30,882 bases of DNA. Source: a virus. Positions 7,110 to 24,617 of this stretch are shown piece by piece. Within the stretch, counting starts at the first letter, position 1, and the number at the start of each line of letters is the position of its first letter. The notes beneath the pieces were generated by a model. The model worked only from the letters and a program-made list of their open reading frames with translations, was not told the DNA's origin and did no database searches. The stretch lies in the IMG/VR virus record IMGVR_UViG_3300045988_046657. One strand, given 5' to 3'. A program made the position numbers and the translations under genes.

Positions 7110-7991
7110 ATGGCAACAGGAAGAGAAAATTTATTTGACGCGGTACTTGTAAAAGATCTAATGAACAAAGTGAAGGGAAAATCATCTTTAGCGGTTTTGT
7201 CGGGACAGACGCCGATCCCATTCAACGGACTGAAAGAATTTATTTTTTCAATGGACAATGAGATCGATATTGTAGCAGAAAACGGGAAAAAGTCAGAGGG
7301 CGGCATTACTGTAGATCCGGTAAAAATCGTGCCAATCAAATTTGAGTACGGAGCGAGAGTTTCAGACGAATTTTTGTACGCGACAGAAGAAGAACAGCTT
7401 GATATTTTAACAGCGTTTAACAATGGTTTTGCGGCAAAAGTAGCGAAAGGTTTTGATCTGGCAGCGTTTCACGGCATTAACCCACGGACAGGCGGAGCAT
7501 CAACAGTTGTAGGCACGAATCACTTTGACAGTAAAGTAACACAAAAAGTCAAATATACAAAAGGAACGCCGGATACAAATCTGGATGCGGCGATTGCAAT
7601 GGTGCAGGGATCGGACGGAGACGTTACAGGGATAGCGCTGTCAAATGCATTCGGGGCAGACATGGCAACGGTAAAGGAAAACGGAGTCAGACAGTACCCA
7701 GAATTTAGGTTTGGAGCATCGCCGGAATCTCTCGGAGGAATGAAAACAAGTGTAAACAAGACTGTATACAACGACACTGTGAAAGATCACGCAATCGTGG
7801 GCGATTTTTCCAACGCTTTCAAGTGGGGGTTCTCGAAAGAAATTCCTTTGGAGATCATCAAATATGGCGATCCGGACAACACGGGAAAAGATTTAAAAGG
7901 TTACAACCAGGTTTACATCCGCGCAGAAGTCTATCTCGGATGGGGAATTCTTGTGCCGGAATATTTCGCAAGGGTGGTAGACGAAACTTGA
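7110..7991 (+). CDS. major capsid protein
   Basis: 293-aa protein directly after the scaffold gene; sequence style of Firmicutes siphophage major head proteins. Confidence 0.6.
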   Translation: MATGRENLFDAVLVKDLMNKVKGKSSLAVLSGQTPIPFNGLKEFIFSMDNEIDIVAENGKKSEGGITVDPVKIVPIKFEYGARVSDEFLYATEEEQLDILTAFNNGFAAKVAKGFDLAAFHGINPRTGGASTVVGTNHFDSKVTQKVKYTKGTPDTNLDAAIAMVQGSDGDVTGIALSNAFGADMATVKENGVRQYPEFRFGASPESLGGMKTSVNKTVYNDTVKDHAIVGDFSNAFKWGFSKEIPLEIIKYGDPDNTGKDLKGYNQVYIRAEVYLGWGILVPEYFARVVDET

Positions 7992-8111
7992 TATACAGAA
8001 ACAAACGAACAGGGAATGTGATCGAAACACAGTGCGAACTGAAGGGTGGAGACTGGGAGGCAGAAAAGCCGCCCAGATCCACCACTAAAAAGAGAAAGAC
8101 GGTGAAAAAAG

Positions 8112-12611: not shown

Positions 12612-13448
12612 ATGATACGATATATCAATTCAGAAGGAAAAGAATATAAATTTTACGATGCAAGAGTGAGAGCAACAAGCGGAAATTTTCACAAGCACGC
12701 TTGGACGCCGGAAACGAGCAAAAGAAAAATAGGAGAAACTGTACAAGGTTTTGAGAAAGACGCGGCGGAGTACGAAATCACTTTTACGGTTAGAGGAGCG
12801 TTGGAAGATCGAAAAACATTTTTGGATGAAATGCAGGATGCGTTCGAAACAGATGTTTTACTAGAGAGTCCGGGAAGAATTTATTTTGGGGATTATTACA
12901 TAGATGGGTTTGTAACATCGTCCGAAACAAAAACGTCGGATATAGCAGTCTATTATTCACAAAATAAGGTGAAATTGTATTGTCCACGTCCAATATGGAC
13001 AAAAGAAAACTCGTACACATTTCACAGTTACGGTGCATCGTCTTCAGACAATAAACGCTACCCCGGGCGTTACCCATGCCGCTACGCAAATGGCATGAAT
13101 AACACATACATCCAAAACCCTCATTTTACAGACGTAAATTTTACACTTGTAATTTACGGACCGGTTGCAAACCCTCAAGTCATCATCGGAGATAAAAGCT
13201 ATTTGGTCAACATTGTTTTAGAGCAAGGAGAGCGGTTGGAGATAGACAGCCGCACGAGGACCGTTACGAAAGTGTCAAAAAACGGAGAAAAAGTTAACGC
13301 GTTTCATAACAGGGAAAAGGGAAAGACATTTTTCAAGAAGATCCCGCCCGGACGACAAAAAGTTGTGTGGTCGGGTAAATTCGACTGGGACTTAACGATC
13401 TACGAGGAAAGGAGCGAACCAAGATGGAGCGGGTGGAAGCAGCGCTAA
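12612..13448 (+). CDS. distal tail protein (Dit)
   Basis: 278 aa, immediately after the tape-measure gene. Confidence 0.55.
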   Translation: MIRYINSEGKEYKFYDARVRATSGNFHKHAWTPETSKRKIGETVQGFEKDAAEYEITFTVRGALEDRKTFLDEMQDAFETDVLLESPGRIYFGDYYIDGFVTSSETKTSDIAVYYSQNKVKLYCPRPIWTKENSYTFHSYGASSSDNKRYPGRYPCRYANGMNNTYIQNPHFTDVNFTLVIYGPVANPQVIIGDKSYLVNIVLEQGERLEIDSRTRTVTKVSKNGEKVNAFHNREKGKTFFKKIPPGRQKVVWSGKFDWDLTIYEERSEPRWSGWKQR

Positions 13449-17874: not shown

Positions 17875-17883
17875 AAAACATTT

Positions 17884-17905
17884 CCCCGGAGTATTAGCTC
17901 CGGGG
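17884..17905. terminator. bidirectional terminator between the convergent lysis and integrase genes
   Basis: CCCCGGAG-TATTAG-CTCCGGGG, with an A-tract upstream and a T-containing tract downstream. Confidence 0.5.
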
Positions 17906-18004
17906 AGAAATATTGTATCATCTTCATACATTATATAAAGAAGTAACAGTTGCAGGTTTTTACGTTAAGGATACCTTATAGGGATATAAAATGATTTGTA
18001 TGTT

Positions 18005-18035
18005 GTTACGAAAAGGTTGACCTTTTTGTTATAAC
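18005..18035. other. candidate attP core (imperfect 30-bp inverted repeat around a central TG)
   Basis: GTTACGAAAAGGT-TG-ACCTTTTTGTTATAAC lies 3' of the serine integrase gene, between the lysis module and int. Confidence 0.25.
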
Positions 18036-18061
18036 CTACAAAACTGCGAAATCCCTTGATT

Positions 18062-19543
18062 TTACTGAGATTCCGGCGCATAGTAGTAATAAACTTTCAG
18101 CTCATCTTTTGAGCGATCATATATAATCTTTTCTATCACGCTCTTTAGGATTTCATTTTTGGTTACGGAGTCCACAGAGTCAGATTCTATGATTTCATAT
18201 ACATTTCTTACTTTTTCCAACATAGCGAGTTTAGAAGTATCAATAGTAGGTTCTGCTGGTTTTATGTCTGCAAGCTGCTTTTCCAGCATCTCTTTTTCTT
18301 CCTGAACCATGCGCTTATTTTCTTTATATTCATCAAGTGTATCTACTCCATTACGGTACGCTTCTCTGATGCGGTCAAATTTTTCCACATTCTTTCTTAA
18401 CTGCTCCGTAATAATGACGTTTAGATCCACAGAAGTTTCCTGCACCGGTTCAACGTGCCTGTAGATGATGTTGCCAGTGTCCAGAACTTCTTTTATGGAT
18501 GCAAGTACCGCCGGTTCCAGCTTCAAGGAGCTTACAGATGTCTTGGCAAGGCATTTTCCTTTTGAGTACCCATAGCATGTAAAATAGCAGTATGATTTTT
18601 GGTTATTTACTGTTTTGGCAATCATGGTTCTTCCGCATACAGGGCACTTCATAAGACCTGAAAGCCAATGTTTGTATGTAGAGGAAGGTCTGGTGCCGGA
18701 TGGTTTGTATTCGCTTTTGTAACGGATCTGCGCTTTGTCAAATAATTCTTTAGATATAATAGCAGGTTGCTGACCATCAGAGACAATCCATTCTGATTCC
18801 GGTCGGATTTCGTTTGTTTCGCTTACGGTACGGTTCCATCGGATCATACCGCAGTAAGTTGGGTTCTGTAAGATGTATTCAATAGATCTGCGTTCAAACG
18901 GTTTGTTGTGAGATGTTTTAAACCCACACAAATTTAGATAGCGTGCTATGTCGAATATTCCGGTATGTTCATTTACATATTTATCAAATATGATTTTAAT
19001 TATTTCAGCTTCTTCCGGCACAATAACAGGAGGTTTTCCGCGCTCTTGGATTTTATATCCAAGCGGAGGACGCGCCTGATAGCCGCCGCGTTTTGCCTTT
19101 TCTGTCATACCTCGTGTCACTTCGCCGGAAAGACGGACAGAATAGTACTCGTCCATCCATTCAATGATGCGCTCGATCAAAGAGCCGAACGGACCGTCTA
19201 CAAGCGGCTCGGAAACGCTCAAGACTTCTACGTTGTGCTTCTTCTTTAAAAGAGATTTATAAACAATAGACTCTTCCTGATTTCTTGCAAATCGACTGAA
19301 TTTCCACACGATGATACAATCTACAGGATGTTTGTCTGATTTGGCAAGAGCGATCATCTTTTGAAACTCCGGACGCTTGTCAGCTTTCCGACCGGAAATA
19401 CCGAGCTCATAAAAGATTTGCAGGACAATCATATCGTTCTTTTTAGCAAAGTCTTTCAACAGTTTTGCCTGCGAATCAGGAGAGAGTTCTTCTTGGCCGG
19501 ATGTGGATACCCTAACATAACCATAACAATATTTAGTTTTCAT
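18062..19543 (-). CDS. int: large serine recombinase (phage integrase)
   Basis: N-terminal resolvase catalytic domain YGYVRVSTSGQ...SGRKADKRPEF; recombinase domain; C-terminal zinc ribbon CPVCGRTM...CYFTCYGYSKGKC and coiled-coil; RBS GAGGTG. Confidence 0.9.
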   Translation of the reverse strand: MKTKYCYGYVRVSTSGQEELSPDSQAKLLKDFAKKNDMIVLQIFYELGISGRKADKRPEFQKMIALAKSDKHPVDCIIVWKFSRFARNQEESIVYKSLLKKKHNVEVLSVSEPLVDGPFGSLIERIIEWMDEYYSVRLSGEVTRGMTEKAKRGGYQARPPLGYKIQERGKPPVIVPEEAEIIKIIFDKYVNEHTGIFDIARYLNLCGFKTSHNKPFERRSIEYILQNPTYCGMIRWNRTVSETNEIRPESEWIVSDGQQPAIISKELFDKAQIRYKSEYKPSGTRPSSTYKHWLSGLMKCPVCGRTMIAKTVNNQKSYCYFTCYGYSKGKCLAKTSVSSLKLEPAVLASIKEVLDTGNIIYRHVEPVQETSVDLNVIITEQLRKNVEKFDRIREAYRNGVDTLDEYKENKRMVQEEKEMLEKQLADIKPAEPTIDTSKLAMLEKVRNVYEIIESDSVDSVTKNEILKSVIEKIIYDRSKDELKVYYYYAPESQ

Positions 19544-19755: not shown

Positions 19756-20049
19756 GTACTTAACAAGACAGCCGATAGGTAGGTGCAAGCTACCCGATCC
19801 GGCGAATATAACTGTTTACAAAGTAAGCCGTCCTATCCGACCAAGATACAGGGCAGCTTACTTATGCTTCAAATTCAGAATTGCAACTACAAGCAGAGCA
19901 AATGTAAGTAAAATCTGCATTTCTTCATATGTACTCATAAGTATTTCCCCTTTCCACAAGACTGGATCGGGAACCAGCACGCCCCTCGGCTGTCTGGGTA
20001 AATACATTATTCTTTTGTGGATGCCCCGGAGCTGTCCGGGGCGGGGGTT

Positions 20050-20631
20050 CTATTCCTCTGTTTGAGAGGATGCATCCTCTCCGGTGTCCGATTCTTGAGT
20101 GCTGATATCTTGATACTGCTCCATAATGGTATCTATTTGACTGTGGTATTCCTCGGCTTGATCAGGGGTCAAATCATATTCAATACGAAAAATAGCTTTA
20201 TCATATTTATACATGTATTGATCTAATGCAAGTATTCCCAATGACGAATCCTGCAATGTTTTGAGATATTTATACCGATTGTTACAATCGGACTCATTTT
20301 CAAAAGTCTCTATCGTTCCACCAACAAGATACTCACCGTATTGTTCTAATCGGGTATCTTCAAAATCTGCTTTGCTGATATATTCTCCCGGGCGACCGAG
20401 ATTTCCGTTCGGATCTGTAGATTCGTCAAATGCCTCTATTCCTCCCACATTTGAATTTATCGCCTTAATCTGTTCTGCAAGACTTTGAGAATCTGGAAGA
20501 TCTTCATATACCGGTTCGGTTTCTTCATTGACTCCCCGTTCTCCATTTGACGCGCCTTCAGATTCGCCGCAAGCTGTAGCTGACACGGCTAGCATACATG
20601 CTAACATAATGACAGCGATTTTCTTTTTCAT
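20050..20631 (-). CDS. secreted acidic lipoprotein in the int–repressor interval (candidate superinfection-exclusion / lysogenic-conversion protein)
   Basis: MKKKIAVIMLACMLAVSATAC is a signal peptide with a lipobox Cys; the mature protein is highly acidic; its position matches Ltp/Sie-type genes. Confidence 0.6.
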   Translation of the reverse strand: MKKKIAVIMLACMLAVSATACGESEGASNGERGVNEETEPVYEDLPDSQSLAEQIKAINSNVGGIEAFDESTDPNGNLGRPGEYISKADFEDTRLEQYGEYLVGGTIETFENESDCNNRYKYLKTLQDSSLGILALDQYMYKYDKAIFRIEYDLTPDQAEEYHSQIDTIMEQYQDISTQESDTGEDASSQTEE

Positions 20632-20704
20632 AGCTTTTCCCTCTCTTTCTTTTGTCCCCTGTTCCTTTAACACCACTTTATATAATCGCCGTAGCGGTTA
20701 TACC

Positions 20705-20926
20705 TTATTTATGCGCAGACATTTCGATTTTCTGTACATCTATTTTCTCAAAATCACGCTCCTTTATATGCCTAATCGCATGGTTAATTGCCTTTAACCG
20801 TTTGCTTTCACATAAATTTGCGTTTATAAAAATAGTGAATGAATTATCTTCATTCTCGGTTATTACTTCATTAACGGTCATTCCGTCCATGAAAAAAATT
20901 TGATAATCAAGACTCATTATTATCAC
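20705..20926 (-). CDS. hypothetical small protein co-transcribed with the repressor
   Basis: 73-aa ORF overlapping the repressor 3' end by 20 nt. Confidence 0.4.
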   Translation of the reverse strand: MIIMSLDYQIFFMDGMTVNEVITENEDNSFTIFINANLCESKRLKAINHAIRHIKERDFEKIDVQKIEMSAHK

Positions 20927-21285
20927 GTTCCTTTTTCTTTAATGCCATAAGCATGTCATATGTTGTTTTCAAATCTTCCGGAGTAGCATCTTTTGCAGCA
21001 TCGAATAAGACACGCAAATCTTTGTTTTCAAATAGTTTTTGTGCCATCTCAGCGGTTTCTTCGTTTAAATAGTACTTCTCACCGCCTTCCTTTTCTTCGC
21101 CAGTACGAATATACTCTACTGATACTCCAAACAAGTCAGCAATTTTTTTGTAGTTTTGCATCTTTGGGGTTGCTTCTTCCATTCTTCCAGTCGGAGAAAG
21201 TTGACTTGGTAATCCCAGTTTCCCTTGCAACGTCAGCGTCTTTCATGCCTTTGGCATCTCTTAACTTGCAATAAATTTCATACAT
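20907..21285 (-). pseudogene. cI-like XRE-family HTH repressor interrupted by a 1-nt frameshift in a C4/G4 homopolymer
   Basis: From ATG 21285..21283 the N-terminal frame reads MYEIYCKLRDAKGMKDADVARETGITKSTFSDWKNGRSNPK and terminates shortly after; the downstream frame continues ...PKMQNYKKIADLFGVSVEYIRTG... to 20907. Removing one C at 21166..21169 (minus-strand CCCC) restores a single ORF whose HTH aligns residue-for-residue with the Cro paralogue. Confidence 0.6.
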
Positions 21286-21326
21286 AATACACCTCACAAA
21301 AAAATTCTGAAATCAGTACAAAAGCT

Positions 21327-21355
21327 ATTGACAAGTTCTGATATCCGCACTATAA
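21327..21355 (+). promoter_or_regulatory. consensus early promoter (TTGACA, 17-bp spacer, TATAAT) driving cro rightward
   Basis: TTGACA at 21327..21332 and TATAAT at 21350..21355. Confidence 0.6.
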
Positions 21356-21434
21356 TAAAGCTACAAAGTTCGGAAATCAAAACAGAATTGTAACTTAATT
21401 CTTTGTCAATGTATCTGGTAAATATATTGTATCT

Positions 21435-21470
21435 GATTTCCGAACTAAAATCAATAGGAAAGTTCGGAAA
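21435..21470. promoter_or_regulatory. operator-like inverted repeat ATTTCCGAACT-N14-AGTTCGGAAAT, with a third direct copy at 21366..21376
   Basis: Three copies of the 11-mer AGTTCGGAAAT lie between the divergent repressor and cro genes; one pair is inverted and overlaps the cro RBS. Confidence 0.4.
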
Positions 21471-21485
21471 TGAGGTGATTATTTA

Positions 21486-21671
21486 ATGTATGAAAAATAT
21501 GTAGAAATCAGGGATTCAAGAAAACTGACAGATTATCGTGTGTCAGAAGATACTGGAATAACTAAATCTACATTTTCTGATTGGAAGTCAGGAAGAAGTA
21601 AGCCAAAGATGGAAAAGCTCAAAATCCTCGCCGACTACTTCGGAGTATCTATTGAGTACTTCCTAGAGTAG
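21486..21671 (+). CDS. Cro-like XRE-family HTH regulator
   Basis: GITKSTFSDWKSGRSKPKMEKLKILADYFGVSIEY is an XRE HTH; 61 aa; divergent from the repressor; RBS GAGGTG. Confidence 0.7.
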   Translation: MYEKYVEIRDSRKLTDYRVSEDTGITKSTFSDWKSGRSKPKMEKLKILADYFGVSIEYFLE

Positions 21672-21742
21672 TGTAACAGGAAAGGTGTTCGATAAACATG
21701 ACTTTGAAGCAGAAGAGGAGGTGAAGGTAATAATGAGAATAA

Positions 21743-21865
21743 AAATAATTTTTCACATAACAAGGATGGACGATGTTAGTGATGTTTTGAAGAAAGCAGA
21801 AGAATTAAAGAAAGAGCACCCCCATACAGAAATTAGTATAGAGGTTCTAATATAGAAAGATTATT
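21743..21865 (+). CDS. hypothetical 40-aa ORF
   Basis: Strong RBS GAGGAGGTGAAGG; shorter than the ORF-track cutoff. Confidence 0.3.
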
Positions 21866-22082
21866 TCTTTCTGATTTCGATGGCTTTTAATCCAGTTGTA
21901 GAAATTGTGTAACTTGTACTAGAACTATACAGGTAAATCTCTGAGTGAATCCTAAAATGCTGAGATGCAATTTCATCGCCCGAATATGTTCTTATTCCGG
22001 ATGAAGTAGGAATTTCGATTTTATCTACATTCGTGCACAAGTGATCATTTCCATCGAAATATGAAAAATAAACATCATACAT
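21861..22082 (-). CDS. antisense small protein A (paralogue of 22406..22651)
   Basis: N-terminal MYDVYFSYFDGNDHLCTNV is similar to MMQNYYFYIYPDINGNYEVHTENC of gene B; conserved 5' leader with RBS AAAAGGAGAG. Confidence 0.45.
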   Translation of the reverse strand: MYDVYFSYFDGNDHLCTNVDKIEIPTSSGIRTYSGDEIASQHFRIHSEIYLYSSSTSYTISTTGLKAIEIRKK

Positions 22083-22224
22083 ATAGTATCTCTCCTTTTC
22101 ATAATACTCGGCATGGCAGTGCCTGTATTAACAGTATAGGAGAGGTGGAGGAGAATAGCAAGTAGCATGCAGATCAGCTGTCAATAAAACGGACAGAAGA
22201 GAAAGGAGAGTGATTAAGTTGGCT

Positions 22225-22386
22225 ATGGAGATGCTTGATAGAGAATTCCGAGAAGACCAGAGCGCGATATTAAGCAATGAGATTTCGCGGTGTATGATTC
22301 AGAACAATATGACATTGGAGAATCTGGACGAGGCGTGCGAGATTGTACGTGAGGTGTTTAGAAAGAACGCCACAATGAAAGGCTGA
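22225..22386 (+). CDS. hypothetical 54-aa ORF
   Basis: RBS AGGAGAG; may start at the in-frame TTG at 22219. Confidence 0.25.
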   Translation: MEMLDREFREDQSAILSNEISRCMIQNNMTLENLDEACEIVREVFRKNATMKG

Positions 22387-22405
22387 CGAAAAGCCAGCCC
22401 CATTA

Positions 22406-22651
22406 TTATCCCTTGTGGCATTCACGGCAACAATGATAACATCCGTCAAACTTTTTATCGGGATAAGCAATCTGCGCAGCAATTATAGCTGCCTGACAAG
22501 AACTGTATCTTCCAATATACTGTCTGTTAAGTTCGGATGGAAGATAATAGCAGTTTTCTGTATGTACTTCATAATTGCCGTTAATATCTGGATAGATATA
22601 AAAATAGTAATTTTGCATCATGATGGAACTCCTTTCGTAGTACTCGGACAT
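22406..22651 (-). CDS. antisense small Cys/aromatic-rich protein B (C-terminal CYHCCRECH zinc-knuckle-like)
   Basis: 81 aa; conserved 5' leader shared with gene A; RBS AAAGGAG. Confidence 0.5.
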   Translation of the reverse strand: MSEYYERSSIMMQNYYFYIYPDINGNYEVHTENCYYLPSELNRQYIGRYSSCQAAIIAAQIAYPDKKFDGCYHCCRECHKG

Positions 22652-22902: not shown

Positions 22903-23121
22903 ATGGAAGAGATTAAATTACCGACAGTGCCGGAGCTGGAGCTGATCCCGATCGAGCGGAGAAATTTTCCGGAAGAGGATCACAAGCAGGAGAAAATTCA
23001 GCACAAAAGAAAAGAAAGAGACAGCGCTGCAAGAGGTCTGATCGCAGTAACGGTTGCCAGCATGATGTTAAACGCGGTGATGGCTATGATCATTTACATC
23101 TTGCAGGCAGGACCAATCTAA
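22903..23121 (+). CDS. small C-terminally membrane-anchored protein
   Basis: C-terminal TM helix GLIAVTVASMMLNAVMAMIIYIL; its 3' end is the start of direct repeat A. Confidence 0.4.
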   Translation: MEEIKLPTVPELELIPIERRNFPEEDHKQEKIQHKRKERDSAARGLIAVTVASMMLNAVMAMIIYILQAGPI

Positions 23122-23392
23122 GGAGGTGAACAAAGAAATGGATGTAAAGGTAAAGAAAGATGCCGAAGAAGAAATGAACTGCATCTTAGATCTACTTGAA
23201 GAATGGTGTCTGAAATACGATCAGGATTATGCAAACGCGGTTGTACTTGTAAAACATGATCAGATCACATCGTGGGGAAGTATAGGCAATCACGAAGATT
23301 TTGACGTTTACAGAACAAAAGAGCGCCCATAAATGAGGCGGCAACCTCTAGGACGCATAGATAAATAATCAACATTATTGTAACAGAAAGGA
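23063..23392. repeat. direct repeat copy A (about 330 bp) carrying the 68-aa gene and a conserved downstream leader
   Basis: About 88 percent identical to 24286..24617 by eye. Confidence 0.85.
23126..23332 (+). CDS. 68-aa hypothetical protein (paralogue 1)
   Basis: MNKEMDVKVKKDAEEEMNCILDLLEEWCLKYDQDY...; RBS AAGGAGGTGAAC. Confidence 0.5.
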   Translation: MNKEMDVKVKKDAEEEMNCILDLLEEWCLKYDQDYANAVVLVKHDQITSWGSIGNHEDFDVYRTKERP

Positions 23393-23400
23393 CGAGAAAA

Positions 23401-24270
23401 GTGAAGAAATTTGAATTAACAAATGAATTTGTAACAAATATGTTCGGGACAAAGCTGTTCCGCATCCGTGCCCTTGTTGAGTTCGGCGATGTGGAAGCCG
23501 GAGAACTTGGCGGGTATGTGGAGAAGGAATCAAACCTTGGTCATGACGACAATGCGTGGGTGTACGACAATGCGCGGGTGTACGGCAATGCGTGGGTTTC
23601 CGGCAATGCACAGGTTTCCGGCAATGCGCGGGTGTACGGCAATGCGTGGGTGTACGGAGATGCACAGGTTTCCGGCAATGCGCGGGTGTACGACAATGCG
23701 CGGGTGTACGGCAATGCGCGGGTGTACGGAGATGCGCTGGTGTACGACAATGCGCGGGTGTACGGCAATGCGTGGGTGTACGGAGATGCACAGGTTTCCG
23801 GCGATGCGCGGGTTTCCGGCAATGCGCGGGTGTACGGCAATGCGCGGGTGTACGGAGATGCACAGGTTTCCGGTGATGCGCGGGTGTACGACAATGCGCG
23901 GGTGTGCGGCAATGCGCTGGTGCGCGGCAATGCGTGGGTGTACGGCAATGCGTGGGTGTACGGAGATGCACAGGTTTCCGGCGATGCGCGGGTTTCCGGC
24001 AATGCGCGGGTGTACGGCAATGGGGACTATGCATACGCTCACGGTTTCGGATCTGTCAACCGTACAACGACCTTCTTCCGTCTCAAAGATGGCGGCGTGG
24101 GTGTGCGGTGCGGATGCTTCTACGGGACGCTTGCACAGTTCCGGGATAAGATCCGGGAGACACACGGAGAAACAAAGAAGGCACAAGAATACCTGATGCT
24201 GGCAGACCTGATGGAACTCAGATTCGAAGAGGATGAAAACGAAGTAGGAAATAGAAAATACGTTGAGTAA
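23401..24270 (+). CDS. tandem hexapeptide-repeat protein (predicted left-handed beta-helix), 26 perfect N/D-A-x-V-Y/S-G/D repeats between unique N- and C-terminal domains
   Basis: GTG start with RBS AAAGGACGAG; the + frame is the only one with non-repetitive termini and operon context; the repeat block is open in all six frames. Confidence 0.6.
   Translation: MKKFELTNEFVTNMFGTKLFRIRALVEFGDVEAGELGGYVEKESNLGHDDNAWVYDNARVYGNAWVSGNAQVSGNARVYGNAWVYGDAQVSGNARVYDNARVYGNARVYGDALVYDNARVYGNAWVYGDAQVSGDARVSGNARVYGNARVYGDAQVSGDARVYDNARVCGNALVRGNAWVYGNAWVYGDAQVSGDARVSGNARVYGNGDYAYAHGFGSVNRTTTFFRLKDGGVGVRCGCFYGTLAQFRDKIRETHGETKKAQEYLMLADLMELRFEEDENEVGNRKYVE
23551..24018 (+). repeat. 26 near-identical tandem 18-bp repeats (consensus AATGCGCGGGTGTACGGC)
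   Basis: Directly visible; encodes NARVYG and variants (NAWVYG, DAQVSG, DARVSG, NALVRG ...). Confidence 0.95.
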
Positions 24271-24285
24271 TGAAAGAAGATAGTG

Positions 24286-24617
24286 TGATGTTAAATGCGG
24301 TGATGGCTGTGATTATTTACATCCTGCAGGCAGGACCGATCTAAGGAGGTGAACAAAGAAATGAACGAAGAAATAAAGAAAGACGCCGAAGAAGAAATGA
24401 ACTGCATCTTAGAACTGCTCGAAGGATGGTGCCTGAAATACGATCAGGATTATACAAACGCAGTTGTACTTACAAAAAACGATCAGATCACATCGTGGGG
24501 AAGCATAGGCAATCGCGAAGACTTTGACGTTTACAGAACAAAAAAGCGCCCATAAGAGGCGGCAACCTCTAGGACGCATAGATAAACAACCAAGATTATT
24601 GTACGGGAAAGAAAGGA
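24286..24617. repeat. direct repeat copy B (about 330 bp), including a truncated remnant of the membrane-protein 3' end (MLNAVMAVIIYILQAGPI)
   Basis: Alignment with 23063..23392. Confidence 0.85.
24349..24555 (+). CDS. 68-aa hypothetical protein (paralogue 2)
   Basis: MNKEMNEEIKKDAEEEMNCILELLEGWCLKYDQDY...; about 80 percent identical to paralogue 1. Confidence 0.5.
   Translation: MNKEMNEEIKKDAEEEMNCILELLEGWCLKYDQDYTNAVVLTKNDQITSWGSIGNREDFDVYRTKKRP

Follow-up and report, generated by a model that had tools for sequence, protein, structure and literature searches.

The window, by which we mean the whole 30,882-nt stretch of viral DNA analysed here, holds on its sequence a complete temperate phage of 30.8 kb, siphovirus-like and in its excised, circular form, whose host is Mediterraneibacter/[Ruminococcus] torques; its repressor gene is split by a frameshift. 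The best explanation, to which we give a probability of roughly 0.65, is a genuine null allele that arose when replication slippage lengthened a run of six As to seven (A6 to A7) in a free or circular temperate phage of the lytic, clear-plaque type. We infer three things in saying so: that the seventh A is carried by the DNA itself and not just by the assembly, that function is lost, and that the lifestyle is lytic. The relevant features, with positions counted from the first letter of the window, are:

18062 to 19543, minus strand: large serine recombinase (integrase) of 493 aa, matching phrog_95 integrase (E = 1.8e-121)
20705 to 20917, minus strand: 70-aa open reading frame (ORF), matching phrog_20886 (unknown function; E = 3.6e-39)
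20907 to 21143, minus strand: remainder of the repressor in the +1 frame, residues 48-125 and the stop codon, from translation
21136 to 21285, minus strand: 5′ fragment of the repressor, native residues 1-47, then Asn-Cys-stop, from the ORF list and translation
21143 to 21149, minus strand: the lesion, an A7 homopolymer (T7 on the plus strand) and the only gap relative to intact loci
21166 to 21169, minus strand: C4 run, the rejected site of the shift, the same in intact and split loci
21286 to 21485, no strand assigned: divergent switch region of 200 bp, from repeat and promoter scans
21486 to 21671, plus strand: cro-like gene of 61 aa (Pfam HTH_3, 43.1 bits)

The disrupted repressor gene opens on the minus strand with the ATG at 21285 and, in the ORF list and its translation, runs for 49 codons to the TGA at 21138-21136. 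The product of this 5′ ORF is MYEIYCKLRDAKGMKDADVARETGITKSTFSDWKNGRSNPKDAKLQKNC. Downstream of the split, the +1 frame reads ...KIADLFGVSVEYIRTG...ERDNNES as far as the stop codon at 20907-20909. The first-pass annotation had described a repressor split in this way, from an ATG at 21285 through an early stop to a +1 frame ending at 20907, and that description stands. Two of its details change. The early stop falls 8 codons past GRSNPK instead of the 15 given, and removal of one base restores a repressor of 125 aa, not 123. The repaired repressor is 99% identical to the natural proteins P0001-P0013 and P0133. A one-base deletion anywhere between 21136 and 21245 creates a 125-aa ORF and 54 different proteins result, so the site of the lesion is not fixed by the window sequence alone.

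Comparison with intact homologues fixes it. A search with the repaired repressor returned 2199 homologues, many of them 125 aa long and 98-99% identical. Most of the best 120 of the 2199 are single ORFs of 121-130 aa, and every homologue read is one uninterrupted in-frame ORF. GRSNPKDAKLQKIADLFGVS is present in every intact homologue read, and the fault is thus an extra A in the run at 21143-21149; a deletion in this A7 run is the sole one-base deletion that recreates the natural protein. The intact A6 allele is CAA AAA ATT, encoding Q46 K47 I48, and the disrupted allele becomes CAAAAAAATT. Aligning 17 homologues, with identities down to 70%, showed no variation at P40, K41, K44, K47 or I48. 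When about 1 kb of DNA spanning the gene was aligned, a single gap at 21149 set the window and six other contigs (L001-L006) apart from every intact locus. This is most simply explained by a slippage-type insertion, A6 to A7, in the longest homopolymer of the gene. A −1 ribosomal frameshift on A-AAA-AAT was also considered and rejected: the −1 frame reads KKLLTCLEYQ-stop, and the native frame is +1.

An earlier placement of the shift in the C4 run at 21166-21169 had rested on a PKM match between the repressor and Cro, which proves to be a coincidence of the wrong frame. Deleting a C there gives PKMQNYKK, a product absent from the homologues, all of which, among the intact ones read, have PKDAKLQKIADLF and never PKMQNYKKIADLF; the gap in the DNA lies at 21149. 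Because the C4 position is wrong, the recoding site proposed at CCC-C is wrong too. A programmed +1 frameshift at this run, already called conceivable but unsupported by the first-pass annotation, has nothing in its favour other than the existence of the C4 run, and comparison with the intact alleles refutes it to the point that we give it next to no credence: intact genes carry the same run and read it in frame as N-P (AAC CCC), and the split form makes up about 0.2% of copies, with no conserved context.

The repaired repressor is an XRE-type HTH_3 protein (PF01381; 48.9 bits against a cut-off of 23), with the domain at residues 7-59 covering profile positions 3-55 of 55. For the 49-aa fragment the score falls to 33.2 bits, over positions 3-43 of 55 only. 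An AlphaFold model of an intact homologue, 99% identical (mean pLDDT 78, pTM 0.46), places the HTH helices at residues 2-12, 16-23, 27-34, 42-52 and 56-61, followed by a flexible linker and a C-terminal domain (75-123) of three helices (75-86, 88-98, 102-123). On this model the 5′ fragment covers helices 1-3 of HTH_3 and half of helix 4, and the +1-frame remainder comprises the end of helix 4, helix 5, the linker and the three-helix C-terminal domain. The one-base insertion that replication slippage from A6 to A7 would introduce would cut the protein off within helix 4, residue 47 being the last native one, with loss of the rest of the HTH fold and of the whole C-terminal domain. Given that loss, the A7 allele is, as far as the modelled fold can tell, almost certainly null.

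Elsewhere in this phage group, two 126-aa proteins (P0162 and P0171) carry the same C-terminal domain (YYLN.ETAEMAQKLFENKDLRVLFDAAKDATPEDL...KKKERDNNEF) on a quite different HTH domain. The repressors of the group therefore look modular, with DNA-binding specificity apparently swapped and the C-terminal domain retained.

The genes of the window include those for portal, terminase, tape measure, holin, amidase, a rolling-circle Rep, ParB and integrase. Its circularity, claimed at first reading, is borne out as an appearance by a 55-nt direct repeat at the termini. On the 3′ side of the repressor lie the 70-aa ORF, a lipoprotein-like ORF and the 493-aa serine integrase. Homology to integrated prophages stops at about 18018, some 44 nt past the integrase stop, and the window then enters a lysin gene; it therefore carries attP, the excised junction. 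For this comparison the integrated loci were L010, L012 and L014 and the excised ones L001 and L003. The attP region spans about 17875-18062, and its counterpart in the three integrated loci lies at about 13220-13270. The insertion site of prophages with the 493-aa integrase is the 3′ end of a host gene for a 315-aa protein, beside a Peptidase_M50 (RseP-like) gene and dxr, and relatives with a 510-aa integrase adjoin a fragment of a Mn-catalase gene.

In the early region, two segments of about 320 nt each (23063-23382 and 24286-24603) both match one set of segments in related loci, with identities of about 90%, and several overlapping 85-90% matches fall between 23500 and 24350. We read these as probable paralogous small genes or repeats internal to the region. 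Nearby, at window position 23822, is the end of L001, the JGI contig of the window phage. A megablast of 20000-22500 against 50,697 phage records gave no match.

Comparison with prophage copies in host genomes had been proposed as a check, and when run it found the intact A6 allele in integrated prophages. The intact A6 protein P0133, which is the repaired repressor except for the last residue, belongs to Mediterraneibacter/[Ruminococcus] torques in NCBI and occurs on at least 1000 contigs (3398 index blocks). The ten longest P0133 contigs carry it in prophages integrated at two sites, distinguished by the 493-aa and 510-aa integrases, and one of these contigs is a complete 2.98-Mb genome. An identical immunity cassette is common to different prophages with the two integrases. 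The A7 allele is rare by comparison. The exact 49-aa truncated product was found on six further contigs, all of them A7 in their DNA, giving about 6-7 contigs against thousands, or about 0.2% of observed copies. Pattern scans yielded four matches in IMG/VR and six in JGI metagenomes, ten of ten A6 and none A7, and a scan of the GTDB representative genomes yielded no match.

The few A7 contigs bear directly on whether the seventh A is real. Three of them agree with the window at 100% identity: L001 (JGI 3300029605) over 12.7 kb, L003 (Logan ERR912002) over 10.5 kb and L006 (ERZ825290) over 0.7 kb. They represent three sample accessions that may not be independent samples, and several of the contigs in support derive from a single run. 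The window, L001 and L003, the contigs that reach the site, share a private SNP, 20911C, present in none of the A6 loci aligned, and the repaired repressor with the 20911C ending is absent from the protein collection. Different assemblers all give A7 for ERR912002, a short-read run of the TwinsUK shotgun cohort (XieH_2016). A second assembly of that run, L004, matches the window around the gene but has 41 SNPs relative to it in the replication module, which means that more than one genome variant belongs to the A7 lineage. The allele also occurs in L002 (ERZ27253030), a different mosaic phage with the 510-aa integrase, about 94% identity in the tail genes and private SNPs of its own. P0003 was tried as the intact version of the L002 haplotype and rejected, as the SNP differs (21080 versus 21062). 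A cluster look-up did recover the downstream product of L002.

These contigs have to be weighed against a homopolymer miscall, in which the phage DNA would truly be A6, its repressor intact, and the extra A present in the consensus only. Such +1 errors in homopolymers are the commonest indel artefact, and the dataset contains an example. Compared over 6.3 kb with L014, its nearest intact relative, the A7 contig L005 (coverage 2.3x) shows 14 indels, some of them in host genes, and 0 mismatches, which means that sequencing error can create exactly this allele; as a candidate integrated prophage with A7, which would have pointed to lysogeny despite the broken gene, L005 was discounted as an indel-ridden, low-coverage contig. 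The scarcity of A7, the A6-only outcome of the IMG/VR and JGI scans and the shared run and possibly non-independent samples among the supporting contigs point the same way. So could a second homopolymer frameshift within 5 kb in L002 (C4 to C5), which might signal lower read quality. Against a miscall, several assemblers and sample accessions return the same allele linked to the lineage SNP 20911C, and a second genome background has it too. The window has no other private indel relative to nine intact relatives over more than 10 kb, so its assembly is not error-prone for indels. A consensus error to A7 is also improbable on the TwinsUK short-read data, whose platform we take to be Illumina. 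The sequencing-error option raised by the first-pass annotation is thus weakened by the linked SNP, the several assemblies and the clean indel record, and it keeps the precedent of L005; on balance we regard it as unlikely, if still to be reckoned with.

Other irregularities occur in the same public material. The C4 to C5 change in L002, at its position 1502, splits a 248-aa gene with a PemK_toxin domain into ORFs of 124 and 98 aa beside the repressor module, and is either a second real lesion of the lysogeny module or homopolymer trouble in the assembly. L009 (ERZ1761048 contig_1538, 1.33 Mb), like L005, is rich in single-base indels relative to near-identical relatives, so the split genes of both are not to be taken as biology. 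Further repressor truncations are found on public contigs (P0122, P0124, P0126-P0131). Some of these are inferred one-base insertions in a GGC/AAGG stretch, ending ...RTGRRKGRR or ...EEKGRR, and others join unrelated sequence after LQKI. The gene would seem to be broken in several ways at low frequency, with real lesions and errors inseparable there.

The genuine null allele also fits the state in which the A7 DNA was recovered. In the window, L001, L003 and L002, the informative credible A7 contigs, the integrase lies beside lysin and so marks attP, whereas the intact relatives run into host genes. The intact comparison contigs were picked for length, which biases them toward integrated copies, and because the longest were chosen the contrast is only suggestive. 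With the same limit, the excised junction, present in every credible A7 contig extending to the integrase, is what lytic or free DNA would show. The earlier suggestion of a repressor-null variant has accordingly gained support from the recurrence of one allele, the linked 20911C, the several assemblies, the second divergent phage and the excised junctions, while its lytic phenotype stays a prediction.

A genuine A7 allele might still be less than fully null. The intact reading could be restored by slippage, the run could vary in phase between A6 and A7, or a homoimmune prophage could supply repressor in trans; a partly active A7 allele would mean a weakened or conditional lysogeny switch. Restoration is conceivable in principle, as one A dropped by RNA polymerase, or a +1 slip of Lys-tRNA on A-AAA-AAA, regenerates QKIADLF exactly. 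A precedent is offered by ‘savior’ indels in the G run of the herpesvirus thymidine kinase (TK) gene, which are rescued by low-level frameshifting (PMC5009743). There, too, a one-base change falls in a 6-7-nt homopolymer of a viral gene and slippage rescue is conceivable; for the window, a full-length repressor product from A7 is conceivable from the sequence alone. The A7 lineage is also found in at least two genome variants plus L002, and is thus not a single dead-end molecule.

Several observations speak against restoration by slippage. Productive transcriptional slippage in bacteria involves runs of nine As, sometimes eight (PMC1088944), and a run of seven is below these documented lengths. 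Inspection shows no SD-like element upstream, nor does a stop or rare codon adjoin the shift codon, the stop being two codons off. The 73 nt after the A run fold somewhat better than shuffled sequences (z = −2.6), a value to which we give no weight because the same sequence, and hence the same hairpin, is in the intact gene. The split form is conserved in no clade. In sum, the marks of programmed frameshifting or slippage, namely a conserved split ORF, a sufficiently long run and +1 stimulators, are lacking here.

A phase-variable locus would show several run lengths, +1 and −1, at appreciable frequency, and this one does not: exact look-ups in about 15 billion proteins returned neither an A5 product nor, for four other N-terminal haplotypes, an A7 product. 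A partly active allele also has against it that every credible A7 contig is excised and none is integrated.

Complementation draws on the identical immunity cassette of the prophages with the two integrases, and on assemblies from the XieH data that break or gap exactly at this cassette, as expected with a second copy. In L029, a scaffold of XieH16 sample SAMEA3449197, a 100-N gap (7991-8090) takes the place of cro and most of the repressor, and the L003 and L004 contigs, from one run of the same cohort, end at window positions 21678 and 20915, the borders of the cassette. This suggests that the cassette is repeated or heterogeneous in the XieH sample, perhaps with a second, possibly intact copy. 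Against it, the JGI contig runs unbroken through the immunity region. Taken together we consider a genuine but incompletely null A7 allele quite improbable. The stronger proposition, that the A6/A7 run is itself a leaky or reversible switch, or that A7 persists by borrowing the repressor of a homoimmune prophage, strikes us as very improbable. If true, a widespread gut prophage family would be keeping largely lytic ‘cheater’ genomes in circulation between people.

We return to the preferred reading, a true loss of the repressor, and to what it would mean for the rest of the switch. Within the 200 bp between the divergent genes, an operator-like motif, AGTTCGGAAAT(C/G)A, occurs in four copies, at 21301-21316, 21365-21379, 21433-21446 (inverted) and 21459-21474. 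The promoter scan found a perfect sigma-70-type promoter (TTGACA-17-TATAAT) directed toward cro at 21328-21356, and candidate leftward promoters lie in the same region. Across 21286-21671, which holds the operator-like repeats and cro, the window-type A7 loci have no private changes relative to intact prophages; L002 has one private SNP, at 21441, within the inverted operator-like copy. The A7 phage alone would be unable to establish or hold lysogeny and would grow lytically on non-immune hosts. With operators and cro of wild type, it would remain subject to repression by any homoimmune prophage resident in the cell.

The switch region holds a second homopolymer, in the repressor leader at 21298-21304 (A7 on the plus strand, T7 on the repressor strand), just 5′ of the ribosome binding site GAGGTG. 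In the window and all loci with the A7 repressor allele the run is T7, a length shared by some intact loci (L009, L013, L015 and others); most intact loci have T8, and L010 has T9. Its variation in length could tune expression of the repressor.

On the other side of the repressor, the 70-aa ORF overlaps the repressor stop by 11 nt and adjoins the repressor in all related loci that reach there, bar one (it is not called in L013). The two are probably translationally coupled. The SNP 20911C falls in both genes, changing the last residue of the repressor from F to S and residue 3 of the 70-aa ORF from F to L. The ORF gave no Pfam match and is too short for a protease.

A repressor knocked out by a homopolymer frameshift is an ordinary, textbook mechanism and raises no new question. 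An annotation should treat the two short ORFs as a single repressor gene disrupted at 21143-21149, and gene content alone should not score the window phage as lysogeny-competent. The window offers a natural case, from human gut metagenomes, of a very common Mediterraneibacter prophage present as free circular DNA with its repressor knocked out. A free phage with a broken repressor agrees with the view that prophages are a source of lytic variants in the gut.

Among known repressor classes, the lambda CI/LexA type is defined by autocleavage through a Peptidase_S24 domain with a Ser-Lys dyad. The window repressor is not of this type: at 125 aa, with its C-terminal half modelled as three helices, it gave no Pfam match to Peptidase_S24 at E ≤ 0.1. 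The ImmR/DdrO class pairs the repressor with an adjacent HEXXH metalloprotease gene, and no ImmA/IrrE-type metalloprotease was found by Pfam among the genes neighbouring the repressor in the loci examined, nor does a recognisable antirepressor adjoin it in the window. In build it may come closer to XRE repressors of the SinR/DdrO/phi106 type, in which HTH_3 is joined to a small helical C-terminal domain for oligomerisation, in about 110-130 aa. Profile matches in the PDB are to DdrO-type and phage repressors, and profile and fold matches together take in DdrO (6jq1, 6rnx), SinR and 9sf2 (phi106 repressor). The alignment to 9sf2 covers residues 7-114 (E = 1.1e-4), with whole-chain superpositions above 8 Å rmsd (pTM 0.46), and the confident match is confined to the HTH part. 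For the modelled N-terminal domain, superposition over about 62 residues gives 1.4-1.6 Å with 434 Cro, 434 repressor and P22 c2, and SinR and DdrO superpose on it too.

The 434 repressor and 434 Cro, and P22 c2, are HTH paralogues that share operators, and the window repressor and Cro are clear paralogues as well, as the first-pass annotation had recognised: BLASTP aligns them without gaps at 35 of 59 identical residues (59%; E = 1e-25). This identity is unusually high, with helices 2-3 nearly the same in both, and the window repressor differs further in its C-terminal domain, a short three-helix unit.

A parallel from the gut is the prophage Shimadzu of Roseburia intestinalis, from which ultravirulent mutants arise in the mouse gut, with operator and cro mutations that permit growth on lysogens (bioRxiv 10.1101/575076). 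Both are temperate gut phages of Lachnospiraceae that appear to escape lysogeny through mutations in a cI-cro immunity region. In the window, by contrast, the repressor itself is broken and cro is unchanged, as are the operators in the window-type contigs (L002 has its one SNP). Growth insensitive to immunity is therefore not expected. Ultravirulent mutants carry operator or cro changes that lower repressor binding; among the A7 loci compared, the one private change in these elements is the L002 SNP at 21441.

The nearer counterparts are temperate phages with a null mutation in the repressor, the clear-plaque (c-type) mutants, for example lambda cI- and P22 c2-. As in these, the window combines what looks like an inactivating lesion of the repressor with operators and cro of wild type, and the phage is predicted to be lytic yet sensitive to immunity. 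Where the lambda repressor has an HTH plus S24 architecture, that of the window is small, of the XRE type, and has a helical C-terminal domain. The lambda and P22 mutants came from laboratory selection; the window allele comes from gut metagenomes, with its clear-plaque phenotype predicted from sequence.
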